A stretch of DNA of 64,000 bases from contig CAYUNN010000003.1 in assembly GCA_964445905.1 (NCBI GenBank), positions 69,312 to 133,311 of the forward strand. The letters run 5' to 3'. The notes beneath the pieces were generated by a model. It saw only the letters and a list, made by a program, of their open reading frames with translations. It did not search any database and was not told the DNA's origin. This document shows positions 3,848 to 44,028 of the stretch, piece after piece (within the stretch, counting starts at the first letter, position 1; every line of letters begins with the position of its first letter). The translations under genes and the position numbers were made by a program. Source of the stretch: an uncultured Candidatus Saccharibacteria bacterium (GTDB taxonomy: Bacteria; Patescibacteriota; Minisyncoccia; Minisyncoccales; JAGGXC01).

Positions 3848-5287
3848 ATGACCCCAAACGAATCATTATCAAAAGCTGATATAAAAAAAGCCTGTGATAT
3901 TCTTAGGCGAGACGATGGCGTAGGTGCCGGTAACTATGTTGAACAATTATCTTGGCTGCTTTTCTTGCGTGTTTTTGAAAATGTAGAACTTCAGCTTAAA
4001 GAAATAAAAGAGGCAGAGGGCGATAAACATCAAGATATTATTGATAAGGAATATCAATGGTCTTCTTGGGCCAGAAAAGATTGGAAAGATAAAGATGAGT
4101 TAGTTCATTTTGTTTCTAACAAGCTCTTTCCTTATTTAAGAAGTCTTAAGGGAACAAATGAAAAAGAGAAAATAGGAGAAATTTTTAGAGAATTAGACGG
4201 AAACAAAATTCGCTCCCCCTTCACATTGCTAGATGTAATTGAGATTCTGGATAAAGTTGATATGGTTCACTATCAAGACACGCACCTTTTGTCGCAGGTT
4301 TATGAGGAAATATTGCAGGAAATGGGCGCTGAAGGTGGTTGGGCCGGCGAGTTCTATACGCCTCGTCCGATTATCCGTTTAATGGTTAATATTATAGAGC
4401 CAAAATTAGGACAAAGTCTTCTCGACCCATTTGTCGGCTCAGCTGGTTTTTTAGTAGAAAGTTTTCATTATATTCAAGAAAATCTTAATAAAAAATCAAA
4501 AACTGGCCTAAGAGAATGGAAAATTCTACAAAATAAAACTTTTTATGGTCAAGAAAAAAAGCCACTTCCTTATTTGATTGGAACAATGAATATGATTCTT
4601 CATCAGATTTTAGTTCCTAATCTTATAAGAGCAAACACCTTAATGGAAGATGTTCATAATGTTTCGGAAAATAAAAAAGTAGATGTAATTTTGACAAATC
4701 CGCCGTTCGGAGGAAAAGAACATAAAAGCGTACAGAATAATTTCCCAATTCCGGTAGCTGCTACAGAAGGGCTTGCCTTGCAGTATGTAATGAGGCATTT
4801 AAAAAATGGTGGACGTTGCGGCATTGTATTACCAGAAGGACAGATTTTATTTGGTGGAGGAGCATTTCAGAAAATAAGAGAAGAGCTTTTAACAAAATTT
4901 AATGTTCATACAATTATATCATTGCCTCAAGGAGTTTTTGCTTCAATGGGGGCAGGGGTTAAAACAAATTTAGTTTTCTTTGAGAAAACAGGGCCCACAA
5001 AAGAAATTTGGTATGGCGAGATAAGCGGTAAATTTACCAAAAAGATTGTTGTTATAGATTCTAATTTAGAAGATGTTTATAAGAAATGGCAAAAGAGAGA
5101 GATTTCAGAAAATAGCTGGATAGTTCCTATTAAAGAGATTAAAGAACGTAATTTTGATATTTCTCCTAAGAATCCAAATAAATTAGCAGAAGAGGAGCTA
5201 CCAGAACCAAAAGAATTAGTAAAAAGAATAGAAGAATCCCAGAAAGAAGCAAAGCAGATTTTAGATAATATAAAAAAGATTTTGTAA
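3848..5287 (+). CDS. hsdM: Type I restriction-modification system, N6-adenine DNA methyltransferase subunit M
   Basis: Carries the N6-Mtase motif ILTNPPFGG, an AdoMet-binding region and the HsdM N-terminal domain. Translationally coupled to hsdS. Confidence 0.93.
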   Translation: MTPNESLSKADIKKACDILRRDDGVGAGNYVEQLSWLLFLRVFENVELQLKEIKEAEGDKHQDIIDKEYQWSSWARKDWKDKDELVHFVSNKLFPYLRSLKGTNEKEKIGEIFRELDGNKIRSPFTLLDVIEILDKVDMVHYQDTHLLSQVYEEILQEMGAEGGWAGEFYTPRPIIRLMVNIIEPKLGQSLLDPFVGSAGFLVESFHYIQENLNKKSKTGLREWKILQNKTFYGQEKKPLPYLIGTMNMILHQILVPNLIRANTLMEDVHNVSENKKVDVILTNPPFGGKEHKSVQNNFPIPVAATEGLALQYVMRHLKNGGRCGIVLPEGQILFGGGAFQKIREELLTKFNVHTIISLPQGVFASMGAGVKTNLVFFEKTGPTKEIWYGEISGKFTKKIVVIDSNLEDVYKKWQKREISENSWIVPIKEIKERNFDISPKNPNKLAEEELPEPKELVKRIEESQKEAKQILDNIKKIL

Positions 5288-5289
5288 CC

Positions 5290-7128
5290 ATGAAAGAATG
5301 GAAAAATTATAAATTAAATGAACTCGTGGATTATAGAAATGGACTTTGGGTTGGTAAAAATCCTCCTTTCGTAACAGCAAAGGTTATAAGGGTAACGGAG
5401 TTTAACAACGATGGAACACATAACCTTGAAACCGCAAGAGAATTAAAAGTTGAGAGCAAGAAATTAAAAGAACGGGTTATTAAGCCGAATCAGATATTAT
5501 TAGAAAGGTCTGGTGGAGGAGAAAAAAAACCGGTAGGGAGAGTAATTCTCTTCAAGGATAATATTAAAGATAGTACTTATTCATTTAGTAATTTCACTAC
5601 TTTGTTGATTCCAAATGAATCAGTTGTTAATCCAAGATTTCTTTTCTATTATCTTCATTTCTTTTATATATCTGGACAAACTAATCATTATCAGAAAGCG
5701 ATGATTGGTATTAGGAATCTGGAATTTAAAAGGTATTTAGAACAAGATATTCCTATACCGCTCGAAAGCAGTCAGCCAGACCTTGAAGAGCAAAAAAGAA
5801 TAGCTGATAAAATTGATAAATTATTTGTAGAAATTGATAGAGGGATTATAGATACAAAGGTTTTTCTTTTAGATTCTCGCAAAATATTTCAAAGTAAGCT
5901 AAAAAAGATTTTTGATGCTGAGCTTTCTAAAAATTGGAGAATAAAAAAACTCGAAGAATTAGCTGCTAATACTGCCTATCCAATAGGAGATGGCGACCAT
6001 GGTCAAATTAAGCCAAGTTCTTATAGAAACGACGGTATTCCATATGTAAGAGCCGCAGATATAGGTTGGGGGGAGTTCACGCCAAATGGAATGGTTTACA
6101 TTTCTGAAGAAACTCATAAAAATAATTTAAAGAGCGAACTAAACCCTGGCGATATTTTAATTGTAAAAACAGGAGCTACTATTGGTAAATGTTGTATTGT
6201 GCCTAATGATATTAAAAAGGCCAACACAACTGCATCCGTTGGTAAAATAACTGTAAATAAAGATAAAGTTCTCCCCAGGTGGGTTTTGTTAAGATTCTTA
6301 TCCCCATCCTTTTTGAAGTTCATTTGGTCAATTAGTCATAAAGCAGCTCAGCCGAGTTTTAACAATAGAGATATAAAATTATTTGAAATTCCTCTACCAT
6401 TTAAGAATAACAGACCAGATTTGGACGAGCAAAAGAAAATCATTATAAGATTGGATAAAATTCAAGAACAAGCTAAGAAACTTGAAGAAAAATATCAGGA
6501 ACAGTTAAATAATTTCAGCAAGCTGAAGCAATCCATATTGCAGCAGGCTTTTGAGGGCAAGTTGGTGACAGCAAAAGAGCAAGCACCAGAGAAAATAAGC
6601 ATTTTTCCTATTCAGCAAGCTGTTGGAGCAATTCTTCAAAGATTTGAAAGAGGAGAGATGGTTGTAGCTAAAATCTTATATTTGGCCCAGACCATAAATA
6701 AAGTTTCTTTTTCTATACCATTCACGCCACAAAATTTTGGACCATATGATAAAGCAGTAAAACGTGCTGTAACCGCAGGATTGAGCAGAAATAATAATTT
6801 TTTTTCCAAGAAAAAATATAGTAAGGGTTTTGTTTATGGGTTGTCTCAAGGCTCTGAAAAATTGTTTAATTATAGTAATGCAAAAACGTTGAGAGAAATG
6901 AATAAATTTTTAGATGAAATGATGCCTTATTTTAAAAGAGTTAAAAGTGCTGACATTGAAAGGCTTGCAAGCGCTTGTGAAATAATAAAAAACAATAAAA
7001 CCATAAACAATGAAGAAGTTTATAAAGAACTTTCAAAGTGGAAGCCAGAAAAATTTACAGCCCAAGAAGTTGACAGAAGTTTAAATTTTATTAAATCTAA
7101 GGGATGGGATAAAATCTTAATGAAATAA
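5290..7128 (+). CDS. hsdS: Type I RM specificity subunit S with an atypical ~190-aa C-terminal extension (Panacea/SocA-like)
   Basis: Two target-recognition domains are separated by conserved coiled-coil repeats (LEEQKRIADKIDKLFVEIDRG; LDEQKKIIIRLDKIQEQAKKLEE). The protein is 612 aa versus a typical ~400-450 aa. Its tail carries ...VVAKILYLAQTINKVSFSIPFTPQNFGPYDKAV..., resembling the KLqKLLYfAq...GPv signature of DUF4065. Confidence 0.88.
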   Translation: MKEWKNYKLNELVDYRNGLWVGKNPPFVTAKVIRVTEFNNDGTHNLETARELKVESKKLKERVIKPNQILLERSGGGEKKPVGRVILFKDNIKDSTYSFSNFTTLLIPNESVVNPRFLFYYLHFFYISGQTNHYQKAMIGIRNLEFKRYLEQDIPIPLESSQPDLEEQKRIADKIDKLFVEIDRGIIDTKVFLLDSRKIFQSKLKKIFDAELSKNWRIKKLEELAANTAYPIGDGDHGQIKPSSYRNDGIPYVRAADIGWGEFTPNGMVYISEETHKNNLKSELNPGDILIVKTGATIGKCCIVPNDIKKANTTASVGKITVNKDKVLPRWVLLRFLSPSFLKFIWSISHKAAQPSFNNRDIKLFEIPLPFKNNRPDLDEQKKIIIRLDKIQEQAKKLEEKYQEQLNNFSKLKQSILQQAFEGKLVTAKEQAPEKISIFPIQQAVGAILQRFERGEMVVAKILYLAQTINKVSFSIPFTPQNFGPYDKAVKRAVTAGLSRNNNFFSKKKYSKGFVYGLSQGSEKLFNYSNAKTLREMNKFLDEMMPYFKRVKSADIERLASACEIIKNNKTINNEEVYKELSKWKPEKFTAQEVDRSLNFIKSKGWDKILMK

Positions 7129-7129
7129 T

Positions 7130-9583
7130 ATGGCATTATCTGAAGCAGATATAAAAGCAAAATATATTGACCCTAAAATTCACGAGAGTGGATGGGCAGA
7201 GGAACTTTTAACTCGCGAATATCCAATTACGCAAGATAGGTTTTTTGTTGAAGGAGAAGAGTATAAGAAAATAAATAGCAAGAAGTTTGCTGACTATGTT
7301 TTAAAATATGATGATATAAATATTGCCTTAATCGAGGCGAAAGCCGAAGATGAAAGCCCGGGAAAACATTTAAGTCAGGCTCAAGATTATGGAAAAAGGT
7401 TAGATGTCCCTTTTGTTTATATTTCTAATGGCAAAAAAACAATTTTGTATGACAGGAGAAATTTAAAAACCCAAGATGTTGACACATATTTAACTCCAGA
7501 AGAAATGTACCAAAGTTATCTTGAGTGGAAGGGGCTCAATAAGGCAAAGGTAGATGCTTTAAATTATCCACCTTATATTTCACCAACACAAAAGCCAAGA
7601 TTTTATCAAGAAGCTGCTGTTAAGGCTGTTATAGAGAATATTGTTAAGGGCAATAAAAAGACACTATTAACTATGGCGACAGGGACCGGTAAGACTTATG
7701 TTTCTTTTCAAACAGTATGGAAATTAGTTAAATCCAAACACTTTCATAGAGTTCTATTTTTGACAGATAGGATAATTTTAAGAGATGATGCTTATGAAAG
7801 AGACTTTGAGCCATTTGGAGAGGCAAGAGAAAAAATAAAAGGAGGTAAATTTAATAAGAATCGTAATATTTATTTCTCTACCTATCAAACATTATTTGCT
7901 GAAGATTTATATAAGAAAATTCCTAATGAATTTTTTGATTTAGTTATTATTGATGAATGTCATCGTTCTCGTTATGGAGATTGGGGTATAATTTTAGACC
8001 ATTTTAATACTGCTTATAATTTTGGCATGACAGCTACCCCTAAACGTCAAGACAACATTGATGTTTATGAATATTTTGGCGAACCGGTCTATGAATATAG
8101 TATGGGCCAAGCCATAGAAGATGGTTTTCTTGTCCCGTATAAGATTTATAAAATAAAAACAAACCTTTATAAGAAAGGACTTCACACCAGTGATGCAGAA
8201 GAAGTTATTTATGATGATGAAATAGACCCCGATGAGTTGAAGGATTTTTATGAACCATCTGAATATGAAAGAGCTATAAGCATTCCAGACCAAATTGAAA
8301 CTTTATCCAAAAAGGTAGTTGAGATTTTAGATAAAACAAATCCATATGGAAAAACCATTATATTCTGTGTAGATATGGCTCACGCCCAAAGCGTTAAAGA
8401 TGAGCTTAATAGGGCAAAGGGTAACGAAGAATATGCTACCAGAGTAGTTGCAGAAGATAAGGATAATTTAAGACCCTTTAGAGATAAAGAAATGACAATG
8501 CCTGTAATTGCTACTACTGTTGATTTGCTTTCTACTGGGGTAGATATACCAAACCTTGAGAATATTATTTTTATGCGTCCTGTAAGCTCTCAGGTATTGT
8601 TTAAACAGATTATTGGACGTGGTTCTAGATTATGCGAAGGAAAGGGATTTTTTAGAATAATTGACTTTACTAACGCTACTAGACTAATTGACGAATGGGA
8701 TGTACCGAAACCACCGCCTCCTCCACCGGAGCCGCCCGAAGAACCTAAGGCTCCCTTCGATAAACTTCTTTTTGGAGTGTTGGTTGATGCTAAAACAGAA
8801 AAACCAATTCCAAAGGCAAATCTTATAGCTAAAATTAGCAGATGGTTTAAGATAGGAACAACTGATAAAAATGGGATATTTAATCTTTTCGGATTACCCT
8901 CCAACGATACTATTGGCTTCTCTGCAGAGAAAGATGCTTATAAAAAATTCAATAAGAAAGTTAAGCCTCAAGAATCAGAAAGTGATGCTCCTTATGTTTT
9001 TAGTTTAAAGTCAGAAAAAGCTAAAGGCAAAAAAATAAAAATTAAGGGAATTGAGGTAACTATTGAAGAAGAAATAGAGGTTGAGTTTGAGGGCAAAAAG
9101 CTATCTTATGCAGAATACAGAAAATATTCTAAAGAGAATATTAAGAAGAAGATTCACTCAAGTGATGAATTAAGAGAAATTTGGCTGACTCCGGAGAAGA
9201 AAAAGAAGTTTCTTAAAGATTTAGAGAGCAGAAACATTAACATAGAACTTATTAAATCCATAGACAATTTTGGAGATAGTGATAGTTTTGATATTATTGC
9301 TCACCTTGCTTTTAATTCCCCTCTTTTAACCAGAGAAGATAGAGTTAAACAGTTTCTGCGTAATAATAATCAAAACATAACTCAACACGGCCAAGCCATT
9401 CAGGAAGCTATTTATAATATTTTAGATATGTATAAATATACGGGGGAGGAGAATTTATCTTCTCAAATATTTATGCTTCCGAATATGAATGCTCAAAAGA
9501 AAGAGGTCCAAAGTAAATATCCTAATGGATTAGCAGGGTTTATGAATTTCTTAAAACAAAAAATATATAGCGAAGCCAAATAA
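7130..9583 (+). CDS. hsdR: Type I RM restriction subunit R (helicase-nuclease)
   Basis: Has an N-terminal PD-(D/E)xK region (IALIEAKAED), Walker A TMATGTGKT and DEAH-like IIDECHRS. A Pro-rich linker PKPPPPPPEPPEEP is followed by an EcoEI-R C-terminal-like domain. Confidence 0.9.
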   Translation: MALSEADIKAKYIDPKIHESGWAEELLTREYPITQDRFFVEGEEYKKINSKKFADYVLKYDDINIALIEAKAEDESPGKHLSQAQDYGKRLDVPFVYISNGKKTILYDRRNLKTQDVDTYLTPEEMYQSYLEWKGLNKAKVDALNYPPYISPTQKPRFYQEAAVKAVIENIVKGNKKTLLTMATGTGKTYVSFQTVWKLVKSKHFHRVLFLTDRIILRDDAYERDFEPFGEAREKIKGGKFNKNRNIYFSTYQTLFAEDLYKKIPNEFFDLVIIDECHRSRYGDWGIILDHFNTAYNFGMTATPKRQDNIDVYEYFGEPVYEYSMGQAIEDGFLVPYKIYKIKTNLYKKGLHTSDAEEVIYDDEIDPDELKDFYEPSEYERAISIPDQIETLSKKVVEILDKTNPYGKTIIFCVDMAHAQSVKDELNRAKGNEEYATRVVAEDKDNLRPFRDKEMTMPVIATTVDLLSTGVDIPNLENIIFMRPVSSQVLFKQIIGRGSRLCEGKGFFRIIDFTNATRLIDEWDVPKPPPPPPEPPEEPKAPFDKLLFGVLVDAKTEKPIPKANLIAKISRWFKIGTTDKNGIFNLFGLPSNDTIGFSAEKDAYKKFNKKVKPQESESDAPYVFSLKSEKAKGKKIKIKGIEVTIEEEIEVEFEGKKLSYAEYRKYSKENIKKKIHSSDELREIWLTPEKKKKFLKDLESRNINIELIKSIDNFGDSDSFDIIAHLAFNSPLLTREDRVKQFLRNNNQNITQHGQAIQEAIYNILDMYKYTGEENLSSQIFMLPNMNAQKKEVQSKYPNGLAGFMNFLKQKIYSEAK

Positions 9584-28867: not shown

Positions 28868-31800
28868 ATGTTAGGACATAAACAATTTATTATTACTGAA
28901 TTCTTAATTAAAAACATGAATAAAATATTAACTTTAATCAAAGAAACTAATTCTTCTAAAAGAGCGTTAGTTTTTGCTTTCGCTGTTTTCTTTGTCAGCG
29001 TTTTTATTTTTAATTTAAACGTTGCTAAAGTAAATGGTTGCGTTCAAGATGATCCTGGCAGTATTACGGTTTGCAAGATTATAATTGACGAAGAGGGAAA
29101 TATAATAACAGATGCTTCTGATTATTCTCCTGCTAGTTTTAATATTCCTTTGTCAGGTGAATCAGCAAGTTTTTCTGATCATATTTTTGAAGCTCAGGAT
29201 TTTTCTCCGAACACTAAATTGATTAATAATTACGACGATGCAGAATGTGTTACTTATGATAATCTTGAGTTAGGAAATTACTATTATGGCGAAGAAATTA
29301 TTAGCCCAGAAGAAAATTGGGAAGAGCCATTGTATAATGATCAATTTTCTCATCAAGTAAATAGCCTCGGTGACTTTTTCGTTTATGACGGAGATCTAAA
29401 TGATGAAAGCAGAAATAAAAACTCTGACGGTCATATTGTATTAAGTCAGGGCAGACCGGAAAGAACACTGGTTATTCTTAATCAATATAAAGTACAGGAA
29501 CCGTCGCTAGTAACTATCCATGCTCTCAAGGTGGTTTGCGAAGGAGAAGAATATTTGCCTGATTGGGCAAGGACTTCCAGTAATCCCTCAATGATTACCG
29601 AAGATCTCGTCAACCAATATGTTGATGATTCGGATGGCAAGTGCTGGTTTGAACCGGGCTGGGAATTTGAATGGGGAGAAACAAGCGCTCCCGAAAAGAA
29701 TGGTGATTACATTGGTTATGGAGGTCAAGGTTGGAATACCTTTGGTCCGACCGATAACGAAGGAAAGGTAATAGTTGAAATTGACTATGTAGAAGGAAGA
29801 CAATATTTCTGGATGAGAGAAGTATTACAGGAAGGATACATTCCTTTTAGCGATTCAGGAGACGGTTCTGAATCTGTAAGCGCTGAAATGCTTTGTCATA
29901 TAGACGCATACAAATACGACAATTATGATCGCGTAGACAATCCAGAAGCGGGCGAGACTTATTATTGTGTTGCCTTTAATGCTCCAATGCCTACTTATTC
30001 TATATCTGGAAAGAAATGGGAAGATCTCAATGGTAACGGAGAAGAGAACTGTGGAGAAAATGGACTAGAAGGATGGGAGATAACCCTAAGTAACGGAGAA
30101 GAGGTCATCGCTACTACTACAACTGACAGCAATGGTTATTATATCTTCGAAGACTTATTGCCTGGTGCCTACGAAGTTTGCGAGGTATTAGTAGATGGCT
30201 GGGAGAATACTTATCCCGGAGAAGGGAATCTTTGTCACAGCGTAGAGATAGAAGAAAGCGATATCACAGACATTAATTTTGGTAATAATCTTATTGAAGA
30301 AGAAGAGTCTTTATTTATTTATGCTAGAAAGGTAGTTTGTGAAGAAGAACAATATTTGCCTAATTGGGGAGCAGATTCTAATAACCCCCCTCAAATTACA
30401 GGAGAAACAGCTGAAGATTATGTTCTTAATTCAAACGGAATGTGTCACTTCGAAGCATGGGATTTCCAATGGGGAATTCCCGAGGGAGCTGTAAAAAAAC
30501 CGGGAGAATTTATTGGTTTTGCTCCTGAACCAGGCTGGAATGTTTTTGGTCCTCATGATGAAGATTTAAGATCAATTGCGGAAATTAGCGGAACTGAATT
30601 AGGAGAAAATACTATAATCTGGGTAAGAGAAGTCTTAAGACCCGATTTTGTTATTTTTACTGATGGTTATACTTCCGAGGATGATTATAGTGCTGAAATG
30701 TATTGTCACATTGACGCATATAAATATGACAATTATGATCGCGTAGACAATCCAGAAATGGGAGATGAATATCACTGTGTCGCCTTTAACGCGCCTACTT
30801 GTACTATTAATTCTAATAATTGGAATCAAGTGGACAGAATAAATCTTGGTGATTCTGAAAGTATGGATGATCATGACGCTCAAGAATGGTGGGACGACCC
30901 GGGAGTAGGAAATTACGGAGGAAGAGATGGAGGAAACCTAATTGCTATCGTAAGAGGAGGAGATGAGTGCTCTGAAGAAACTGCTGCAGCTTCTTTTACT
31001 CTTCAAGCAGGAGCTAGCGCGTCAAGCCTTGTCTTAAGGCACTTGGATGGCTTGAGCAATCTTGATAGCTTTGATGTTTATATCAATGGAATAAAAATTG
31101 GAAGGTATCTAGATTCTCAAGACAGTGAAGAGATTTGGATTACTACTCATTTTTCATTGCCAGAAGGAATGTCCGGTCAATTGGAGGTTGAAATTGTTAA
31201 CATTAATAATCCTTGGGTAAACTGTTCAACATGTGGTCAATTAGCCTTTAATTGGGCTGAAGTTGGTTACTGCGGAGAAACTCCTCCTGCTAAAAGCACC
31301 CTTTATATTATTAAGGATGTTGTTGGAGGAACAGCTGTGTCTGGAGATTTTACAATTTATGTTGTTGGAAACAATCCATCTATAATGTCTTTTCCCGGTG
31401 AAGAATTTCCCGGAACCATAGTAACGCTTGACCATGGGCCTTATAGTGTCTCAGAATCAACTAGCTCAGACTATATTAGCATGCTTTCTGCTGATTGTTC
31501 TGGAACAATAGCGGAAGGAGAAGTTAAAACCTGTACTATAACTAACAGTTTTGACGAGCCTCCTTATTGTGGTGATGGAATATGTAATGGTGATGAGTAT
31601 TGTTATAATTGTCCAGAGGACTGTGGTAGTTGTGGAGGACCAGGTCCTGATCCTGATCCAGACCCTGATCCGGAGCCTGAACCAGAACCCTATTGTGGCG
31701 ATGGAATAGTAAACGGAGATGAAGAATGTGATGGAGAAGAAGGCGTCCCAGAAGGTTATGTCTGTAACGAGCATTGCGTTTTAGAAAGAACGATTTGCGA

Positions 31801-33136
31801 AATGGATTTGAATGTAATGATAGTAATAGATGTTTCTGGAAGTATGGCAAACGATATTCCAACAAAACTTTCTCAAGTTCAAATTAATGCTAATAACTTT
31901 ATTGGCAATTTAAGGAACAATGATAAATCTGGAGTAGTTTCTTTTAGCGGAATAGCTACTTTAGAAAAAGGCTTGTCAACAGATCATGCTTCTACTCAAT
32001 CTGTCATTGATGGTTTAGTTGCGTTTGGAGCTACTAATATAGGAGATGCTATTTATACAGCTAATCAAGAATTAATATCAGAAGATGATATTTCAGACGC
32101 AGCTAGAATAGAAATTCTCTTGACTGACGGTAAAGCTAATCGTCCAAATGGTGATGGTATTAATGAAAATTCAGCTGACCTAGCTTTAGCTTTAGAAAGA
32201 TCTTTAGAGGCAGCTGATAACGGAATTACTATTTTTACTATTGGAGTAGGCAATGAAGTTAACGAGGTTATGCTTCAAACCATAGCTGATAATACAGGCG
32301 GTACATATTACTTTATTCCTACTGCTGGAGAGCTAGAAGATATATTTAATCAAATATCTTCCGAAGCTTGTTTGATTGATGACGAAATAGAGGAAGAGTT
32401 GTCTGTAAAAGTTTTCGATTCAAGAATTATGTCTGTGTCAGATAATAGCGTTACTGTGTCTTGGTTAACTAATATACCAGCTACTAGTAGGGTTATTTAT
32501 GATACTGTTCCTCATCCCGTCCTAGGAGATGCTCCAAATTATGGTTATGAATGGTCAACTGAAGAGTATAGTACTAAGACTTACTTCCACGTAGTAACTA
32601 TTGCGGGAATAGATCCAGGAGAAACTTATTACTGGAGACCAGTCTCTCATGGCTCAGGAGAAAAAGTAGGAGAAGAAACTTCTTTTTCTATCAAGTCTCT
32701 TGAAGATAACATGAATGAGAACAATCAGAACAATCAGGGAGAACAGGAAGAAAGAGAAGAGGAAAAGCAAGAAGAAATGGTAGAAAACGAAGAAGGTCAA
32801 TCCAGAGCAGAAAATATTGTTGAAGAAGAAGAAAAAGGAGAAATGGCAGGTCTTATCGCTGCTATCGGAGAATTCTTCCGAGTAGAAAATCCTTGTTTAG
32901 TAGCGACAATTCTTCTATCAATTCTTGCAATTATATATGTCTTTACAAGAATGAGAAAAGGAAAAAGAACTACCGGAAAGAACAAGTATTCAGATTTAAT
33001 TGCAGGAATGATTATTTTAGCAATATTAGCAATTATATTTAAGTGTGCTTTGTTGCTAATTCCTGTGATTATATTAGCTATTCCTCTCTTGAAGGATAAG
33101 TTTTTAAAGCAAGAAAAAGAGCAAACTCAAATGTAA
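28868..33136 (+). CDS. Giant multidomain cell-surface protein (1422 aa): two paralogous ~160-aa domains, SdrD-B/CnaB-like, Cys-rich CGDG repeats, vWA, FN3-like, acidic tail, C-terminal TM anchors
   Basis: N-terminal TM. A duplicated module ends ...AEM(L/Y)CHIDAYKYDNYDRVDNPE.G..Y.CVAFNAP. SdrD-B-like ISGKKWEDLNGNG...GYYIFEDLLPGAYEV. PDPDPDPDPEPEPEP linker. YCGDGICNGDE / YCGDGIVNGDEECD Cys repeats. vWA MIDAS IDVSGSM...TDG. FN3-like SVTVSWLT...YYWRPVS. Two C-terminal TM helices. Confidence 0.8.
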   Translation: MLGHKQFIITEFLIKNMNKILTLIKETNSSKRALVFAFAVFFVSVFIFNLNVAKVNGCVQDDPGSITVCKIIIDEEGNIITDASDYSPASFNIPLSGESASFSDHIFEAQDFSPNTKLINNYDDAECVTYDNLELGNYYYGEEIISPEENWEEPLYNDQFSHQVNSLGDFFVYDGDLNDESRNKNSDGHIVLSQGRPERTLVILNQYKVQEPSLVTIHALKVVCEGEEYLPDWARTSSNPSMITEDLVNQYVDDSDGKCWFEPGWEFEWGETSAPEKNGDYIGYGGQGWNTFGPTDNEGKVIVEIDYVEGRQYFWMREVLQEGYIPFSDSGDGSESVSAEMLCHIDAYKYDNYDRVDNPEAGETYYCVAFNAPMPTYSISGKKWEDLNGNGEENCGENGLEGWEITLSNGEEVIATTTTDSNGYYIFEDLLPGAYEVCEVLVDGWENTYPGEGNLCHSVEIEESDITDINFGNNLIEEEESLFIYARKVVCEEEQYLPNWGADSNNPPQITGETAEDYVLNSNGMCHFEAWDFQWGIPEGAVKKPGEFIGFAPEPGWNVFGPHDEDLRSIAEISGTELGENTIIWVREVLRPDFVIFTDGYTSEDDYSAEMYCHIDAYKYDNYDRVDNPEMGDEYHCVAFNAPTCTINSNNWNQVDRINLGDSESMDDHDAQEWWDDPGVGNYGGRDGGNLIAIVRGGDECSEETAAASFTLQAGASASSLVLRHLDGLSNLDSFDVYINGIKIGRYLDSQDSEEIWITTHFSLPEGMSGQLEVEIVNINNPWVNCSTCGQLAFNWAEVGYCGETPPAKSTLYIIKDVVGGTAVSGDFTIYVVGNNPSIMSFPGEEFPGTIVTLDHGPYSVSESTSSDYISMLSADCSGTIAEGEVKTCTITNSFDEPPYCGDGICNGDEYCYNCPEDCGSCGGPGPDPDPDPDPEPEPEPYCGDGIVNGDEECDGEEGVPEGYVCNEHCVLERTICEMDLNVMIVIDVSGSMANDIPTKLSQVQINANNFIGNLRNNDKSGVVSFSGIATLEKGLSTDHASTQSVIDGLVAFGATNIGDAIYTANQELISEDDISDAARIEILLTDGKANRPNGDGINENSADLALALERSLEAADNGITIFTIGVGNEVNEVMLQTIADNTGGTYYFIPTAGELEDIFNQISSEACLIDDEIEEELSVKVFDSRIMSVSDNSVTVSWLTNIPATSRVIYDTVPHPVLGDAPNYGYEWSTEEYSTKTYFHVVTIAGIDPGETYYWRPVSHGSGEKVGEETSFSIKSLEDNMNENNQNNQGEQEEREEEKQEEMVENEEGQSRAENIVEEEEKGEMAGLIAAIGEFFRVENPCLVATILLSILAIIYVFTRMRKGKRTTGKNKYSDLIAGMIILAILAIIFKCALLLIPVIILAIPLLKDKFLKQEKEQTQM
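29505..29988 (+). repeat. Intragenic paralogous domain copy 1 (of 2) in giant surface protein
   Basis: LVTIHALKVVCEGEEYLPDW...CHIDAYKYDNYDRVDNPEAGETYYCVAFNAP. Shares an identical nt stretch gacaattatgatcgcgtagacaatccagaa with copy 2. Confidence 0.6.
30313..30798 (+). repeat. Intragenic paralogous domain copy 2
   Basis: LFIYARKVVCEEEQYLPNW...CHIDAYKYDNYDRVDNPEMGDEYHCVAFNAP. Confidence 0.6.
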
Positions 33137-33188: not shown

Positions 33189-33257
33189 TAAAAAAGGACT
33201 TATCCACAGAAAACTTGATTGACTATACTTCCTATTAGTAATATTATTTAAATAGGA

Positions 33258-33644
33258 ATGATTACTAATAATAAAAAAGAAAGATTGACTCCGCAAAGGA
33301 AGATCATTATTGATTATTTAAAGAGTGTTAAAACCCATCCTACCGCCGAAGAGGTTTATTCGGCGGTAAAGAGGAAACTTCCCCGAATAAGCTTGGGAAC
33401 TATTTATCGTAATCTTCAAAAGCTAAAATGTTCTGGAGAGATTAGGGAGATTGATTGTAGAACGTGCGGAGTTACTCGTTACGACGGTAATATGTTTTCT
33501 CACGACCATTTTTTATGTGAGAAATGCAATAAGATATTTGATATTAAAAGGTCAGTTGATTTAAAAAATAAAATTAAAATAGGAAAAATTAAAAGTTACC
33601 AAATATATTTTTATGGAATTTGCAAAAAATGTTCAACAAAATAA
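33258..33644 (+). CDS. Fur-family transcriptional regulator (PerR-like peroxide regulon repressor)
   Basis: Winged-helix N-terminus (TPQRKIIIDYLKSVKTHPTAEEVYSAV...ISLGTIYRNLQKL). Metal sites HDHFLCEKC and CKKC. Sits at the head of the rubrerythrin/Dfx cluster. Confidence 0.8.
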   Translation: MITNNKKERLTPQRKIIIDYLKSVKTHPTAEEVYSAVKRKLPRISLGTIYRNLQKLKCSGEIREIDCRTCGVTRYDGNMFSHDHFLCEKCNKIFDIKRSVDLKNKIKIGKIKSYQIYFYGICKKCSTK

Positions 33645-33912
33645 AGCTTATTGTTATGATTGCAAGAAAAAAATTGAGATTAAAAACAATGAAGTCCAAA
33701 ACGGAGTCCTTCTTGGGTACAATGACAATGGAGAGAAATTAATGGTTTTTAAGTGCAATCAATGCTTTGCTAAGGATCCAAGCTTGAGCAAATTTAGGAA
33801 ATGCGAAGTTTATTCCAGGATAGTTGGTTATCTTAGGCCCATTAAGCAATGGAACAAAGGAAAGAAAAGAGAATTTGAGGAAAGAAAAAATTACGAGCAA
33901 AAAGAAGCTTAA
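33613..33912 (+). CDS. Standalone NrdD C-terminal domain homolog (zinc ribbon + glycyl-radical motif), 99 aa
   Basis: CYDCKKK...CNQC zinc ribbon, then ...CEVYSRIVGYLRPIKQWNKGKKREFEERK. This parallels the E. coli NrdD C-terminus ...TRRVCGYLGSPDARPFNAGKQEEVKRR (RxxGYL glycyl-radical site). Overlaps the Fur gene by 32 nt. Confidence 0.55.
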   Translation: MEFAKNVQQNKAYCYDCKKKIEIKNNEVQNGVLLGYNDNGEKLMVFKCNQCFAKDPSLSKFRKCEVYSRIVGYLRPIKQWNKGKKREFEERKNYEQKEA

Positions 33913-33926
33913 ATTAATTATTTTCT

Positions 33927-34370
33927 ATGGTAAAAAAAGAAAACATTACTGGGCTTATGCTCAAAAGTCATTGCAAGTTAGAAGTTCTTCTTAAAAACTT
34001 TAAAGTAGGGACAGATAAAGATGTTGATAGCATTAGTGATAATTTTGAAGAATTTGCAAAAGAACTTAAAAATCATTTATTTGTTGAAGAAGAAGCGATA
34101 TTTAAATTTATAGGTCCAATGCGAAACGAAGAGTATCAAGAGATTATCCCTGATCTCATAAGCGAACATAACTTGCTTTTAGAAAAGTTGAGCGATTTAA
34201 AAGAAAAAATTGTTGAAGGGAATGATATTGATATTACTAATTTTGAGAAATTATTAGTTCAGCATAAAAATTACGAAGAAGAATTTTTTTATCCTCAACT
34301 TGAGGAAAAATTAGAAGAATCTCAAAAAGAAAAAATAATTAAAAAGGTTAAAAAATTATCTATTAATTAA
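33927..34370 (+). CDS. Hemerythrin-like (HHE cation-binding) domain protein
   Basis: Repeated H...E / H..EE..F motifs (HCKLEVLL; NHLFVEEEAIF; SEHNLL; QHKNYEEEFFYPQLEE). Confidence 0.5.
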   Translation: MVKKENITGLMLKSHCKLEVLLKNFKVGTDKDVDSISDNFEEFAKELKNHLFVEEEAIFKFIGPMRNEEYQEIIPDLISEHNLLLEKLSDLKEKIVEGNDIDITNFEKLLVQHKNYEEEFFYPQLEEKLEESQKEKIIKKVKKLSIN

Positions 34371-34379
34371 TAAAAAAAT

Positions 34380-34964
34380 ATGGAAAAAACAATAAAAAAT
34401 TTGACAAAAGCATTTATTGGCGAAAGCCAAGCAAGAAACAGATATTCTTTTTATGCAAAGATTGCTAAAAAAGAAGGCTTTGAGCAAATCTCAGACATAT
34501 TCCTGTTAACAGCTGAAAACGAAAGAGAACATGCTAAGTGGCTTTTTCGCTTGATTAATGATTTAAAGGAAAAGAGCGGAGAAGACCTAGAAGAAATTGA
34601 AGTAGAAGCTTCAGCTCCAACAATTATCGGAGATACTGTTCAGAATCTTAAGTCGGCTATTGACGGAGAGCATTATGAAAATACAAAAATGTATCCTGAA
34701 TTTGCTGACACGGCAGAGGAAGAAGGTTTTCCGGAGATTGCTAAAAGATTGAGAGCCATTAGCAAAGCAGAAGAGCATCACGAAGAGAGATATGTAAAAT
34801 TACTGGCAGAAGTGGAAAACAATACAGTATTTAGCAAGGAAGAAAAAACTTATTGGGTTTGCAGGAAATGTGGCTATGTTCATGAAGGAGAAAAGCCTCC
34901 CGAAGAATGTCCTTCTTGCAGTCATCCCAGTAATTATTTTGAACTTAAGTGTGAAAAATATTAA
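34380..34964 (+). CDS. rbr: Rubrerythrin
   Basis: Ferritin-like diiron E..H motifs ([10 protein letters not shown]; [11 protein letters not shown]) plus a C-terminal rubredoxin-like domain [10 protein letters not shown]...CPSCSHP. Confidence 0.9.
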
Positions 34965-34970
34965 TTAAAA

Positions 34971-35360
34971 ATGACAGAAAAAAAACAAATCTATAAGTGC
35001 AATATTTGCGGGAATATTGTCGAAGTTATTCATGTCGGCCAGGGAGAGTTAGTTTGTTGTGGTCAACCGATGGAATTGCAAAGAGAAAAGACAGAAGACG
35101 CTGGAGAAGAAAAGCATGTTCCAGTAATTGAGAAAACAGAAGATGGCGTAAGAGTTAAAATCGGATCTCATCCTCATCCAATGGAGGAACAGCACTACAT
35201 TGAATGGATAGAGATTATTGTTAATGGAAGGTCTTATCGTAAGTTTCTAGGTCCAAACGACAAGCCAGAAGCAGATTTTGAAATCCGAGCAGATAACATT
35301 CAAGCAAGAGAATATTGCAATATTCATGGCCTGTGGAAAACTCATTACCAGAAAGATTAA
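34971..35360 (+). CDS. dfx: Desulfoferrodoxin (superoxide reductase, class I 2Fe-SOR)
   Basis: N-terminal desulforedoxin [10 protein letters not shown]...LVCCGQPM, then a SOR centre with [23 protein letters not shown] and CNIHGLW. Confidence 0.88.
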
Positions 35361-36077: not shown

Positions 36078-37775
36078 ATGAAAATCAGTTCTAAAAAATT
36101 CAGAAAACTTTTAGTAGATCCTGGCTTTGTAAACGAGAAAGATTTTGACATTGCCGAGAAAAAAGCAAAAGAAAGTGATAAAGATTTGGAAGAGGTTTTA
36201 ATAGGCAATGGTTTAATTTCTGACGAAGACTTAGGGAAAATTATTGCTGAAGAGCTTGATTTTCCTTTCATTGATTTAACAAAAGAAGGGGTCTCTGAAG
36301 AAGCATTTAAGATAATCCCCGAGCTTGTTGCTAAAGTGCAACAAGTTATTGTTTTTGATCGGGAAAGCCAAGAAGAAGGGGATGTTCTTAAGGTGGCTAT
36401 GGTTGATCCGTCTAACCATGACATGATTAACTGGCTGGAAAAGAAGACTGGAGATAGAGTTGAGGCCTACTATACCACCCCTTCTTCCATTAGAGATGCC
36501 CTCAAGTTCTATAAAAAAGAAATCAAAGAAGAGTTTGACGATATTATTAAAAGTCAGGTGATAGAGGCTCAAAAAAAAGAAGCCAAAGCAAAAGATGTCC
36601 CCGTCATCAAGATTGTTGATACCCTGATTAATTATGCTTATGAAAATAGAGCTTCTGATATTCATATTGAACCATTGGAAGGAGAAACAAGAGTAAGATT
36701 CAGGATAGATGGAATCTTGCATAATGTGGTTGATCTTCCTAGTAATATCCATAATTTAGTTGTTGCCCGAATAAAAGTTTTATCTAAATTGAGAACAGAT
36801 GAAAGATTTGCCTCTCAAGACGGAAAGTTCTCAGCTAGGTTCGACAAAGAAAAATTTGATATCCGGGTTTCAATAATACCGGTTACAGAAGGAGAAAAGG
36901 TGGTAATGAGATTATTGTCAGAAAGAATAAGAAAGTTTAGCTTAGACAATCTTGGTCTTATCGGTGAGAGTTTGAAAAAAGTTCAGTCCGCAGCGAAAAA
37001 ACCTTACGGAATGATTTTAGCGACAGGTCCAACTGGTTCCGGCAAGACAACCACTCTTTATAGTATTTTAAAGATTTTAAATAAGCCGGAAGTTAATATT
37101 TCTACCATTGAGGACCCTGTGGAATATGATATTCGAGGAGTAAATCAAATTCAGGTAAATCCTAAAAAGAATATTAATTTTATCAATGGTCTTCGCTCAA
37201 TAGTAAGACAGGATCCAGACATTATTATGGTGGGAGAAATAAGAGATTCTGAAACTGCCAATATTGCTATTAATGCTGCTATGACCGGACATTTAGTCCT
37301 TTCAACTATGCATGCTAATACAGCGGCTACTAATCTTCCTAGGTTGATTGATATGGAGATAGAGCCTTTTTTAGTTGCTTCCTCTGTTAACATAATCATT
37401 GCTCAAAGATTGGTGAGGAAAGTATGTACTCGTTGTAGGGAAAGCTATGAATTATCTAAGAAAAAGGCGATAGAAAAGAATTTTCCCGAACAAGTTATAG
37501 AGAAGGTATTTAAGAAAAAAGAAAAAGTAAGAGTTTTTCATGGAAAAGGATGCAAGGCTTGTGTCGGAACTGGTTTTTCTGGTCGAATAGGAATATTTGA
37601 AGTTTTAGAGATGACAGACAAGATTCAAAAACTAGTTATGGAAAAAGCCAATGCGGGGGAGATTAATCAAGCAGCAATCGGATATGGAATGATTACTATG
37701 CTTGATGACGGAATAGAAAAAGCTTTGCTTGGTTTTACTACAATTGGAGAAGTTCTTAGAGCTACAAAAACTTAG
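36078..37775 (+). CDS. pilB: Type IV pilus assembly ATPase PilB/GspE
   Basis: N-terminal T2SE_Nter-like domain, Walker A LATGPTGSGKTTTLYS, His/Asp boxes, tetracysteine CTRC...CKAC. Confidence 0.9.
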   Translation: MKISSKKFRKLLVDPGFVNEKDFDIAEKKAKESDKDLEEVLIGNGLISDEDLGKIIAEELDFPFIDLTKEGVSEEAFKIIPELVAKVQQVIVFDRESQEEGDVLKVAMVDPSNHDMINWLEKKTGDRVEAYYTTPSSIRDALKFYKKEIKEEFDDIIKSQVIEAQKKEAKAKDVPVIKIVDTLINYAYENRASDIHIEPLEGETRVRFRIDGILHNVVDLPSNIHNLVVARIKVLSKLRTDERFASQDGKFSARFDKEKFDIRVSIIPVTEGEKVVMRLLSERIRKFSLDNLGLIGESLKKVQSAAKKPYGMILATGPTGSGKTTTLYSILKILNKPEVNISTIEDPVEYDIRGVNQIQVNPKKNINFINGLRSIVRQDPDIIMVGEIRDSETANIAINAAMTGHLVLSTMHANTAATNLPRLIDMEIEPFLVASSVNIIIAQRLVRKVCTRCRESYELSKKKAIEKNFPEQVIEKVFKKKEKVRVFHGKGCKACVGTGFSGRIGIFEVLEMTDKIQKLVMEKANAGEINQAAIGYGMITMLDDGIEKALLGFTTIGEVLRATKT

Positions 37776-37780
37776 TAATT

Positions 37781-38995
37781 ATGAAATTTGACTATATTGC
37801 TCAAACAAAAGAGGGCGAGAGTAAAATAGGAGATATTAGCGCGTCAGATCTTCGGGAAGCGAAGGAAAAACTTTTAGAAAAAGATTTGATTTTGATTTCT
37901 GTTGAACAAGTTAGAAAAAAAAGATTTTACATTCCCCTTCCTTCCAGAGTTTCTCATTTAGACAAGCTTCTTTTCGCTCGTCACTTAAGGATGTTAATTA
38001 AAGCAGGGCTGCCTTTAAGGGAAGCGGTAGCAGAGATTAAAGATCAGGCTCAATCCAGGAAATTCAAGAAGGTATTGGAAGACGTTTTAGCTCAGCTGGA
38101 TAATGGAGAGTCTTTATCAAACAGCTTGGCTTCTCATCCAAAAGTTTTTGATGAACTTTCAGTAAGTTTAATCGAAATAGGAGAAGCAAGCGGTACGCTT
38201 GAGAGAAACCTCTCTTATTTAGCTGATCAATTAGAGAAAAAGCATGATTTAAGAATGAAAATAAAAGGAGCGATGATTTATCCGGTTATTGTTTTGTCTG
38301 CTACTTTTGGTTTAATTGCAATTTTAGCCGTATTTATTCTTCCCAAACTTCTTCCTTTATTCAGAAGCTTTGACATTGAGCTTCCTTTGCCGACAAAAAT
38401 ATTGCTCTTTTTCATTTCTGCAGGAGAAAGTTATGGTGCCTATATCGCCGTTTCAATAATTGCTTTTATTTTATTCATGTTTTTTATTTACCGTTTCAGA
38501 CCGGTGAAGTCTTTTTTCCACAGAATTATATTAAAACTTCCTGTTTTTGGAAAAATTACAAAAGAAGTTAATCTGGCTTACTTTTCCCGAACTCTTGGGA
38601 TACTTATAAAAAGCGGAGTTCCGATAGTTGAAGCTTTTGATATTACAAGTAAAAGTTTAAGTAATACTGTTTACCAGAAAGAAGTAGAAGGAGTTATTCC
38701 AACGATAAAGCAGGGAGGGCAGATAGCAGGATATTTTAAAGATAAACCTAAGATTTTTCCTTCCGTTTTTTCAAGAATGATAAGGGTAGGAGAAAGAACA
38801 GGAAAAATAGATGAATCATTGTCTTATCTTGCCAGTTTTTATGAAAAAAATGTTGATGACGCTACCAAGAACATTTCCTCAACTTTGGAGCCGGCTTTAT
38901 TGATATTTATTGGAATGATTATTGCTTTCATTGCCGTCTCTATTATCATGCCAATTTATGAAGCCACTCACGGCTTAAGTGGCTTAAGAAGATAA
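37781..38995 (+). CDS. pilC: Type IV pilus inner-membrane platform protein PilC/GspF
   Basis: Two GspF repeats, 3 TM, 404 aa. Adjacent to pilB. Confidence 0.88.
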   Translation: MKFDYIAQTKEGESKIGDISASDLREAKEKLLEKDLILISVEQVRKKRFYIPLPSRVSHLDKLLFARHLRMLIKAGLPLREAVAEIKDQAQSRKFKKVLEDVLAQLDNGESLSNSLASHPKVFDELSVSLIEIGEASGTLERNLSYLADQLEKKHDLRMKIKGAMIYPVIVLSATFGLIAILAVFILPKLLPLFRSFDIELPLPTKILLFFISAGESYGAYIAVSIIAFILFMFFIYRFRPVKSFFHRIILKLPVFGKITKEVNLAYFSRTLGILIKSGVPIVEAFDITSKSLSNTVYQKEVEGVIPTIKQGGQIAGYFKDKPKIFPSVFSRMIRVGERTGKIDESLSYLASFYEKNVDDATKNISSTLEPALLIFIGMIIAFIAVSIIMPIYEATHGLSGLRR

Positions 38996-42531: not shown

Positions 42532-44028
42532 ATGTTCCGCGGAAATAAAATTTTTGGCATAGATATAAGTGATTTTTCGATAGAAATTTTACAGCTCAAT
42601 TCTAGAAAAAAACCAATGGCATTTGGCAGAATTGTTATTGAAGAAGGAATTGTAAGAGATGGGTTTGTTTTGAAAAAAGAAGAATTGAAAAAGAAAATAG
42701 AAAAAGTCGTTTCTAAATCAAGGGTTCGAGGAAACAAGGTTATCTTGTCTTTGCCCGAATCAAAAGTTTTTACCAGTCTTTTTAGTATTCCCGGAGAAAT
42801 CAAAGGAGACAGGCTTAAAGAAGCAATTGAGAATGAAGCTAGAAAAACTATTCCCATTGAGTCTTCAAAAATATACTGGGATTGGCAGGTAGTTTTTACG
42901 GATCCCAAGAGCAATCAGCAGTTAATACTTTACGTTGGAACATTAAAAGAAATCATTGATGATTATCTTGATATTTTCAAAGACCTGGGAATAGAAATTA
43001 TTGCTTTTGAATTAGATTCTGTTGCTCTAGCCCGGGCCTTACTGGTAAAAAATAAACCAAGAAATGGAGTGCTGATTATGGATATCGGGGCTCGGGTGAC
43101 CGATATTAGTATTTTTGACAAAGATATTATCCTAAAAGATTCCAATGTAGTCTCTGTGGGAGGGGATTATTTAACCAAAATATTAGCGGAAAAATTAAAA
43201 ATATCAGAAGAAAAAGCAGAAAGAGCCAAAAGGAAGTTTGGCGTGGATGGAGAGAACGAAAAAGTGAGCAAAATTTTAAAAGAAGAATTAGAACCTGTTA
43301 TTGAAAGAACGAATAAATCAGTCAGTTATTACAGGGGAAAATTAGATGGGGCATTTTTAGCTGGAGGATCAGCTCAGATTCCTGGCTTGTCCAGTTATTT
43401 TGCTTCTAAAATAAACCTTAATACCAGTATTGGTGTTTCTCCTCTTCTAGCTCAAATCAAAGAAGGTTCGGTTCTTTTTAATACCGTAGCAGGATTAGCC
43501 TTGAGAGGAATAGAAAAAGATCCTAAAAAAGCAGGCGTGAATCTTCTGCCTAAAAAAGAAAAGAGAACCAGTTTAGTTAGTCAGGAAACAAGCAAAAAGA
43601 ATTATTTCCGGGTCTTGGCTATTATAATAGGAATAATCGGTTTTGTTTTTCTTAGCTGGGTAATTTATAAATTTATTATTGAACCTCTTGATCAAAAACC
43701 AAAACCTCCTCCCTTATTAGAGGAAGTACCTGTGGCCACCGGCACAGAAGAAGAAGTTCAACCAGAGCCAGAGCCGGAGCCGGAGCTAGAACCGGAAGTG
43801 GAAGTAGAAGAAATAGAAGTCGTTATTATTTTGGAAACAGAAGAAGGTTGGATTGATGTAAGACAGGGGCCTGATGATAACTATCCTTCTGTAGCCAGAA
43901 TTAATGCCGGGGATAGTTTTCCACTATTGGCTGAATTTGATAATTGGTATAGAATAGAATTAACAGACGGTACTACTGGTTGGGTTTCTGGTAAAAGTGT
44001 TATAATAGAAAAACAATCTACCAACTAA
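42532..44028 (+). CDS. PilM-like actin-fold ATPase fused to PilN-like TM segment and C-terminal bacterial SH3 (SH3b) domain
   Basis: N-terminal FGIDISDFSIEILQL and a second actin-like subdomain. A TM helix YFRVLAIIIGIIGFVFLSWVIY. A Pro/Glu-rich linker PEPEPEPELEPE. SH3b-like GWIDVRQGPDDNYPSVARINAGDSFPLLAEFDNWYRIELTDGTTGWVSGKSV. Confidence 0.72.
   Translation: MFRGNKIFGIDISDFSIEILQLNSRKKPMAFGRIVIEEGIVRDGFVLKKEELKKKIEKVVSKSRVRGNKVILSLPESKVFTSLFSIPGEIKGDRLKEAIENEARKTIPIESSKIYWDWQVVFTDPKSNQQLILYVGTLKEIIDDYLDIFKDLGIEIIAFELDSVALARALLVKNKPRNGVLIMDIGARVTDISIFDKDIILKDSNVVSVGGDYLTKILAEKLKISEEKAERAKRKFGVDGENEKVSKILKEELEPVIERTNKSVSYYRGKLDGAFLAGGSAQIPGLSSYFASKINLNTSIGVSPLLAQIKEGSVLFNTVAGLALRGIEKDPKKAGVNLLPKKEKRTSLVSQETSKKNYFRVLAIIIGIIGFVFLSWVIYKFIIEPLDQKPKPPPLLEEVPVATGTEEEVQPEPEPEPELEPEVEVEEIEVVIILETEEGWIDVRQGPDDNYPSVARINAGDSFPLLAEFDNWYRIELTDGTTGWVSGKSVIIEKQSTN

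Follow-up and report, generated by a model that had tools for sequence, protein, structure and literature searches.

A standalone glycyl-radical domain of the anaerobic ribonucleotide reductase NrdD in a PerR-like/rubrerythrin/desulfoferrodoxin operon: a candidate spare part for an oxygen-sensitive enzyme

The 64-kb stretch of contig CAYUNN010000003.1 analyzed here (in the following: the window; G+C content approximately 33%) originates from an uncultured Candidatus Saccharibacteria bacterium; by its features, it resembles a genome of the CPR (Paceibacterota type). Within a cluster of genes for a Fur-family regulator, a hemerythrin-domain protein, a rubrerythrin, and a desulfoferrodoxin, it encodes a small protein related to NrdD, the ribonucleotide reductase (RNR) of class III (anaerobic). 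This protein, termed mini-NrdD (33613..33912, + strand, ATG start, 99 amino acids (aa)), is assigned by profile matches and homologue alignment as a standalone glycyl-radical domain (GRD) of NrdD; the open reading frame (ORF) is exactly the one quoted in an earlier note on this DNA. In Pfam, it matched the NRDD profile PF13597 (E = 1.6e-12, 47.3 bits, gathering cut-off 26.2), and residues 12–94 corresponded to profile positions 509–562 of 562, that is, to the extreme C-terminus only. The NCBIfam model for NrdD, TIGR02487, was matched at positions 540–580 of 581 (E = 5.8e-11) with a score of 41.6 bits, which fails the equivalog cut-off for the full-length enzyme (326.35). No match to PF01228 or GrcA was obtained at E ≤ 1 in Pfam and NCBIfam. 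On the basis of these profiles, mini-NrdD is classified as a domain homologue of NrdD and not as an NrdD enzyme.

The zinc-ribbon part (33652..33765, + strand) comprises C14-x2-C17 and C48-x2-C51, four invariant cysteines separated by an insert of approximately 30 residues with a β-hairpin, which is typical of the mini-NrdD family. An AlphaFold model of the isolated protein placed β-hairpins at residues 20–48 with low confidence (predicted local distance difference test score (pLDDT) 67, predicted template modeling score 0.37). The glycyl-radical loop and the C-terminal helix (33802..33897, + strand; C64-EVYSRIVGYLRPIKQWNKGKKREFEERKNY) were aligned to residues 611–644 of Thermotoga maritima NrdD. 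The loop motif RIVGYL includes R69-I-V-G72-Y73, the RxxGY motif of NrdD-type C-termini that follows the metal-binding ribbon; the codon of G72 is located at 33826–33828. In an alignment that is sub-threshold and was used for residue correspondence, G72 is the counterpart of Gly621 of T. maritima NrdD. Gly621 is the radical site of that enzyme, whose C-terminal domain also holds a zinc site and contacts the activase (PMC4493059). Invariant positions in an alignment of 32 diverse homologues are C14, C17, C48, C51, E65, V66, R69, V71, G72, Y73, L74, R75, Q79, W80, K84, E87, and R91. Mini-NrdD is thereby predicted to consist of a zinc ribbon, a glycine-bearing loop, and a C-terminal helix without the catalytic barrel, as the earlier note had read from the CxxC...CxxC ribbon and the NrdD-like RxxGYL C-terminus. 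The absence of an upstream barrel, which it had also stated, was confirmed: a tblastn search with two full-length NrdDs matched only the mini-NrdD ORF, and no nrdD barrel fragment was present in any frame of the window. Mini-NrdD is therefore a small standalone GRD protein encoded apart from its parent enzyme.

The gene upstream of mini-NrdD (33258..33644, + strand) encodes a Fur-family, PerR-like transcriptional regulator of 128 aa (PF01475 FUR, 2.5e-25). Its best NCBIfam models are those of PerR (NF052545, 1.8e-29; NF047406, 5.8e-27), both below the curated cut-offs. The mini-NrdD ORF has its own start and overlaps the regulator gene by 32 nucleotides (nt), in agreement with the earlier note. 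Its ATG is formed in the +1 frame where the codons for Tyr and Gly (TAT GGA) adjoin in the C-terminal YGICKKC of the regulator, a conserved YGxCxxC zinc motif. At 33613–33644, the first approximately 10 residues of mini-NrdD are dual-coded with the zinc site of the regulator, and this dual coding probably explains why the N-terminus of mini-NrdD ("ME.AKN") is conserved although it was modeled with low pLDDT. Judging from the overlap, mini-NrdD is probably co-transcribed and translationally coupled with the PerR-like repressor. A 14-nt gap separates it from the gene of the hemerythrin-domain protein (33927..34370, + strand, 147 aa; PF01814, 8.4e-09), which is followed after 9 nt by the rubrerythrin gene (34380..34964, + strand, 194 aa; NF045767, 3.5e-78) and after another 6 nt by the last gene of the operon, encoding a desulfoferrodoxin/superoxide reductase (34971..35360, + strand, 129 aa; TIGR00320, 5.4e-62). 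The neighborhood was as described in the earlier note, and rubrerythrin and desulfoferrodoxin scored above their NCBIfam cut-offs. The hemerythrin-domain protein displayed a weak and partial likeness to the Fe–S repair di-iron protein RIC/YtfE (TIGR03652, 1e-05, far below the cut-off); if this likeness were real, the operon could, speculatively, also repair the oxygen-labile 4Fe–4S cluster of the activase.

Upstream of the regulator gene, a promoter-like site (TTGACT-17-TATTAT, 33219..33247, + strand) was found in a consensus scan with 10 of 12 matches; such sites are no more frequent in the region than expected by chance, and this one is to be read as a consensus match only. The sequence TAGTAATATTATTTAAATAGGAAT (33236..33259, + strand), a direct repeat of TAGKAAT, overlaps the −10 element and ends at the start codon of the regulator gene. 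This 24-nt motif occurs once in the window. In four other loci with a Fur-linked mini-NrdD (L005, L016, L096, and L021), no other sequence of the locus matched as well as its counterpart, which was located 22–67 nt upstream of the Fur start; in L116, the counterpart directly precedes Fur. The Fur-linked loci showed 0–5 mismatches compared with 5–8 for the best matches in unrelated loci, and the motif was found in six lineages. We regard it as a candidate operator of an autoregulated repressor. Peroxide sensing by this regulator is inferred only from the sub-threshold best matches to the PerR models.

The mini-NrdD family is large, conserved, and hitherto undescribed. A search of 5.8 billion protein clusters yielded at least 185 clusters at 90% identity; the 120 clusters listed all contain proteins of 68–128 aa with PF13597 only, annotated in their sources, where named, as "anaerobic ribonucleoside-triphosphate reductase" or "hypothetical." When 1.84 billion representatives (50% identity) were searched exhaustively with a profile, 669 reached E ≤ 1e-10; the 150 top-scoring ones were without exception short (42–159 aa), and most of them cover ribbon and loop. 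Members were found in candidate phyla radiation (CPR) bacteria, in Desulfobacterota, and in tailed phages. The ratio of nonsynonymous to synonymous substitution rates (dN/dS, omega) of the mini-NrdD genes was 0.03–0.16, indicating purifying selection. The loop consensus of 120 family members (CEVYSRIVGYLRPVQQWNkGKKQEYKERKEYK) hardly differs from the one obtained for 120 full-length Paceibacterota-type NrdDs, and the per-position entropies of the loops in these two sets are correlated (Spearman rho 0.89); the loop of mini-NrdD is therefore under the same constraints as that of NrdD.

The genomic context of the family was surveyed using exact-protein look-ups, a scan of the GTDB species genomes, and a metagenome scan, followed by ORF and BLAST classification. 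The order Fur–mini-NrdD was detected in nine lineages (the window with L001-4; L005/6; L007-9 with L017; L014/15; L016; L020; L021; L096-99; L116). The frames of the two genes overlap by 28–32 nt in every lineage measured with the exception of L014/15. In L014 (9750–10004) and likewise in L015, an 84-aa ORF without a Pfam match is located between Fur and mini-NrdD and overlaps both by a few bases. In five of the nine lineages, a gene for rubrerythrin, desulfoferrodoxin, peroxiredoxin, or superoxide dismutase (SOD) follows directly downstream. The sets found there range from hemerythrin–rubrerythrin–desulfoferrodoxin, the same set with a ferritin-like protein and a peroxiredoxin, and rubrerythrin–desulfoferrodoxin to a Fe/Mn-SOD or nothing related; no gene for defense against reactive oxygen species (ROS) follows in L007, L016, and L020. 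Because the downstream genes differ between the lineages, the pair of Fur and mini-NrdD appears to be the conserved core, and the ROS-scavenging genes are frequent cargo. The earlier note had suggested a survey for similar small ORFs near rbr, dfx, and perR; such ORFs were found in these lineages. Of the co-regulation with peroxide and superoxide defenses proposed there, the link to a Fur-family gene and, in five lineages, to ROS-defense genes holds; the regulator may be a true PerR, and the box of Bacillus subtilis is absent. The label "Pacearchaeota" on protein P0047, which would imply membership in the DPANN archaea, was not accepted, the neighboring genes being bacterial (DnaB, DNA polymerase III gamma/tau, UvrD/AddB).

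A different arrangement, nrdD–mini-NrdD–nrdG, was found in 15 genome loci of Moranbacteria, Parcubacteria, and related bacteria. Eight of these loci belong to type B1, in which a complete, loop-bearing NrdD is encoded together with mini-NrdD. The mini-NrdD loops of these genomes are 81%–97% identical to the loop of the NrdD encoded in the same genome; when 45 NrdD loops were compared, this one was always the top or joint top match. The loop thus co-varies with that of the cognate NrdD, as predicted in the earlier note, which had proposed this test. The loop of the mini-NrdD in the window is 81% identical to that of the NrdD of a Paceibacterota genome (L057). In the other seven loci (type B2), NrdD stops shortly after the ribbon, and the loop is missing or visibly decayed, as exemplified by the C-terminal sequences ...CPKCVIEQKTEVFLKVGEEEL..., ...STVYLKVVMAD, and ...KDYRSR, the latter two directly followed by the stop codon. 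No hidden GY[LI]R was present in any frame before the start of mini-NrdD in the B2 loci. The loop-less NrdDs are 75%–83% identical to the B1 NrdDs and keep the barrel and the ribbon, ending just before the position of the glycine. With dN/dS values of 0.027–0.05, the loop-less NrdDs beside mini-NrdD are under strong purifying selection (L031 vs. L036: dN 0.042, dS 1.57, omega 0.027 over 711 codons; L036 vs. L049: omega 0.037). Frameshifts or artifacts were rejected as the origin of the loop-less NrdDs because of the seven different C-terminal decays, the lack of GY[LI]R in any frame, and the strong purifying selection. A barrel without the radical glycine cannot work alone and yet is kept by selection in the B2 loci; mini-NrdD is therefore expected to supply the glycyl radical in trans. 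Comparative genomics thus gives good support to an NrdD glycyl-radical domain that acts in trans, as a strong inference. The truncated B2 NrdD essentially resembles the product expected from cleavage of NrdD by oxygen.

In Paceibacterota-type genomes, the conserved order pth-lepB-hisS-(HIT/YqeY)-ybeY-ftsA-ftsZ-nrdD-nrdG-comEC was observed (L012, L100, L101-L110, L311-L312), in which the anaerobic RNR genes are located directly after the cell-division genes. The conservation of this block indicates that nrdD and nrdG are standard equipment of the clade. All 120 closest relatives (74%–100% identical) of a Paceibacterota NrdD carry their own loop; NrdDs without a loop thus seem to be uncommon in the clade. 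Some nrdD genes are far longer than usual (1000–2500 aa; L012 (6742–9978), L052, L053, L149, L273-L279, and L304); the NrdD of L012 contains an intein with LAGLIDADG matches and has also lost the glycine loop. Two NrdDs with a source profile like that of mini-NrdD (P0337 and P0294) were considered as the NrdD of the window organism and rejected, since they come from other samples. Among the metagenome contigs listed in a scan with a degenerate DNA pattern, none stemmed from the samples of the window.

Further split forms of NrdD were encountered. In one of them, nrdD stops after the zinc ribbon and is followed by an ORF of 44–46 aa that contains the glycine loop only (MSPIKTKRQxCEVYSRVVGYLRP...) and then by nrdG. 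This arrangement was found on metagenome contigs (L113, L187, L117, L160, and L136) and in genomes (L071 and L064; proteins P0123-P0242); in L117, L160, and L136, a spacer of approximately 140 nt with a hairpin precedes the loop-only ORF. At least 278 clusters of PF13597 proteins of 40–69 aa exist, some on contigs of more than 100 kb, and a protein search with the C-terminal 40 aa of mini-NrdD returned short proteins only. A third architecture was seen in L173, L143, and L118, where NrdD ends in an amphipathic helix (...ILSEITELKELLEQNAR before the stop codon) and the following ORF (68–74 aa) consists of a helix (MEKKDIMAKIEELETRLQQVKG) and the glycine loop; the two helices may tether the loop peptide to the barrel as a coiled coil.

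In Desulfobacterota and Syntrophales, mini-NrdD occurs as standalone copies that share a conserved N-terminal helix and have neither conserved neighbors nor a Fur partner. Among the best 80 viral loci from IMG/VR, whose flanks were examined within 8 kb, 42 encode a ribbon-type mini-NrdD with neither nrdD nor nrdG in that range (L231-L272 set). The mini-NrdD gene of L250 (7833–8258) is located between the genes for the tail sheath (7.8e-104) and the tape-measure protein, with the tail tube gene also flanking, and unambiguously belongs to a tailed phage. The phage copies possibly represent an auxiliary metabolic gene acting on the class III RNR of the host. As far as can be judged from gene content, the B1 and phage copies indicate that mini-NrdD also persists as an additional copy that accompanies, or serves, a complete enzyme. 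Divergent members of 112–128 aa were found amid dozens of small unannotated ORFs in L010 (ENA NODE_9, 32 kb) and L011; L010 also encodes a TATA-box-binding protein, which suggests an archaeal or archaeal-virus origin.

Among the other genes of the window, a putative surface protein of 1422 aa is encoded immediately upstream of the operon (28868–33136). It contains SdrD_B and VWA domains as well as an acidic stretch (PDPDPEPEPEP), and a membrane anchor is present at its C-terminus; synteny is kept in the relative L005, which has a counterpart of 1917 aa. A complete type I restriction-modification system (HsdM, HsdS, HsdR) is located at 3848–9583, and type IV pilus genes were found at 36078–38995 (PilB- and PilC-like) and 42532–44028 (PilM-like).

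We consider it fairly probable that mini-NrdD is an autonomous NrdD glycyl-radical domain that is used here as an oxidative-stress-induced spare part in the manner of GrcA/YfiD. The trans action implied by the B2 loci, the location of the window copy in a stress operon unlinked to nrdD, and the loop-bearing NrdDs of Paceibacterota together favor this explanation. The perR-like–mini-NrdD–hemerythrin–rbr–dfx operon would be repressed by its own Fur-family product and derepressed under peroxide or oxygen stress. Cleavage by oxygen at the radical glycine is established for the NrdD of E. coli. The same stress would cleave NrdD at this residue in the organism studied here, leaving a barrel that keeps the ribbon and loses the last approximately 30 residues. 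After rubrerythrin and superoxide reductase had cleared the oxidants, the activase NrdG would generate the radical on G72 of mini-NrdD, in which, to judge by conservation, it may recognize the same ribbon and loop as in NrdD. The loop would then insert into the damaged or loop-less barrel and restore ribonucleotide reduction, as the natural two-piece NrdDs suggest. The cost of such a rescue would be 99 residues instead of the re-synthesis of an enzyme of approximately 700 aa. Of the spare-part idea put forward in the earlier note, the action in trans on NrdD is supported by the nrdD–mini-NrdD–nrdG loci, the co-variation of the loops, and the constrained loop-less NrdDs; the repair of oxygen-cleaved NrdD would be a further step.

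Several observations weigh against a stress-induced spare part. The B2 loci exhibit trans-complementation and not repair, so that the repair scenario is an extrapolation from gene content. A rescued complex would contain both the ribbon of the barrel and that of mini-NrdD. The regulator does not reach the curated PerR cut-offs. A test for a PerR box had been suggested in the earlier note; even with up to 3 mismatches allowed, the B. subtilis consensus was not matched upstream of the operon, where the different, conserved 24-nt motif is present instead. Neither nrdD nor nrdG was found elsewhere in the window by tblastn with the two full-length NrdDs and NrdG. The model of the isolated protein is of low confidence (pLDDT 67); a Foldseek comparison of this model with the PDB gave nothing at E ≤ 0.001, and a profile search of the PDB sequences with mini-NrdD gave no matches at E ≤ 0.01.

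Mini-NrdD could instead be the obligate second subunit of a split NrdD, in which case the nrdD located elsewhere in the organism would be loop-less and mini-NrdD the sole radical carrier in constant use. The seven B2 loci demonstrate that such an architecture exists and is maintained by selection, and the loop-only (44–46 aa) and helix-plus-loop (68–74 aa) ORFs directly after truncated nrdD genes are further split forms of this kind. In all split cases seen, however, the small ORF directly follows nrdD and precedes nrdG, whereas the window copy is unlinked and coupled to a stress regulator; moreover, placing a part of an essential enzyme under a peroxide-stress repressor would be odd in an anaerobe. 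Since 120 of the 120 nearest relatives of the Paceibacterota NrdD keep their loop, an obligate split enzyme is unlikely for the Fur-linked lineages, and the same finding favors a "spare" over an "obligate subunit" for their copies, as far as related sequences can tell. A regulatory or sensory function is judged less likely still: mini-NrdD would act under oxidative stress as a decoy that titrates NrdG or blocks the barrel, or would, as a partner of the PerR-like repressor, report oxygen through its radical or zinc site. The overlapping gene pair, conserved even where no ROS-defense gene follows (L007, L016, and L020), suggests stoichiometric co-production and would fit such a partnership. Yet the loop retains exactly those residues that are conserved in catalytic NrdDs, the copies in nrdD–nrdG operons with maintained loop-less NrdDs imply that, at least in the lineages concerned, mini-NrdD contributes positively to catalysis, and the copies of Desulfobacterota and phages have no Fur partner. 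In a more far-reaching and very doubtful version, the Fur/mini-NrdD pair would be a sensing unit in which mini-NrdD is consumed by oxygen and signals to, or is titrated by, the Fur-family repressor, so that the pool of glycyl radicals controls the stress operon; more broadly, class III RNR of these lineages would be a two-component enzyme with a separable, exchangeable, and even phage-supplied radical part, conceptually comparable to the radical subunit of class I.

In an explanation independent of oxygen cleavage, mini-NrdD would be a radical cofactor that is exchanged as a matter of routine, is activated preferentially over NrdD, and also serves the intact, radical-less enzyme. The B1 loci, which retain both an intact NrdD loop and mini-NrdD, are compatible with this, and a 2022 paper by Kammel and Sawers, as cited by the review of glycyl radical enzymes (GREs), speaks in its favor. 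It is nevertheless quite improbable here, because the own loop of an intact NrdD occupies the barrel and its displacement by mini-NrdD is not indicated by the present data, and because the window copy, being part of a stress operon, suggests a connection with damage. That the ORF is a relic or a pseudogene remnant of nrdD, the former being the alternative named in the earlier note, or has arisen by chance could be argued only from its small size. The family comprises hundreds of proteins whose length is constant, whose motifs are invariant, and whose genes have a low dN/dS; the gene order is conserved across lineages, and no nrdD debris is present in the window; this alternative is considered refuted, and its residual probability is negligible.

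All GREs are destroyed by oxygen via cleavage at the radical glycine, and the mini-NrdD family is a testable spare-part candidate for the enzyme that supplies DNA precursors in anaerobes. Natural experiments are at hand in genomes with a complete NrdD and mini-NrdD, in genomes with a loop-less NrdD and mini-NrdD, and in phage-borne copies. If the proposed function is true, it would help to explain how CPR bacteria with tiny genomes and strict anaerobes recover DNA synthesis at low cost after exposure to oxygen, and it would add a new auxiliary metabolic gene to the repertoire of phages. It would also correct the widespread mis-annotation of proteins of approximately 100 aa as "anaerobic ribonucleoside-triphosphate reductase" or "hypothetical."

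Among known proteins, the C-terminal domain of NrdD itself (T4 G580, T. maritima G621, E. coli G681) shares with mini-NrdD the Pfam region, the RxxGY loop, the QWNxGKxxEF helix motif, and a zinc site beside the loop that is implicated in the interaction with the activase. Mini-NrdD differs from it in being a free-standing polypeptide and in its ribbon, which has the form CxxC-(~30 aa)-CxxC with the β-hairpin insert instead of the CxxH-(~11 aa)-CxxC of CPR NrdDs. Split RNRs, such as the class II NrdJa/NrdJb of Pseudomonas, the nrdA of Aeromonas phage Aeh1, and phage nrdD genes split by introns, inteins, or homing endonuclease genes (HEGs), consist of two polypeptides like the B2 and loop-only NrdDs. 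However, the cuts in these enzymes lie in the barrel or the C-terminal redox domain, or the parts are spliced back; none separates the radical domain of class III, nor does any of them accompany a complete enzyme as an additional copy in the way that mini-NrdD does. RNR phylogeny and phage-RNR surveys describe split NrdJa/b, genes-in-pieces, and intron-, intein-, and HEG-split nrdD (PMC9669993, PMC3653736); a standalone NrdD glycyl-radical domain is described neither there nor in the other full-text literature searched.

The closest parallel is provided by E. coli GrcA/YfiD and the phage T4 protein Y06I. Like mini-NrdD, these are small standalone GRDs that mirror the C-terminus of a large GRE, are encoded apart from the enzyme, have phage versions, and are proposed, once activated by the activase of the enzyme, to take the place of a loop cleaved by oxygen. 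GrcA derives from pyruvate formate-lyase (PFL) and mini-NrdD from NrdD, so that the latter is an analogue and not a member of the GrcA family; it carries a Cys4 zinc ribbon, in place of which GrcA has a disordered N-terminal half. The presumed partners of mini-NrdD are NrdD and NrdG, and it is linked with a PerR-like repressor and ROS scavengers, unlike GrcA. The phage-borne copies parallel the role of T4 Y06I for PFL. [quoted passage not shown] By analogy with these proteins, mini-NrdD would extend the spare-part principle to a second, essential glycyl radical enzyme, which would be new.

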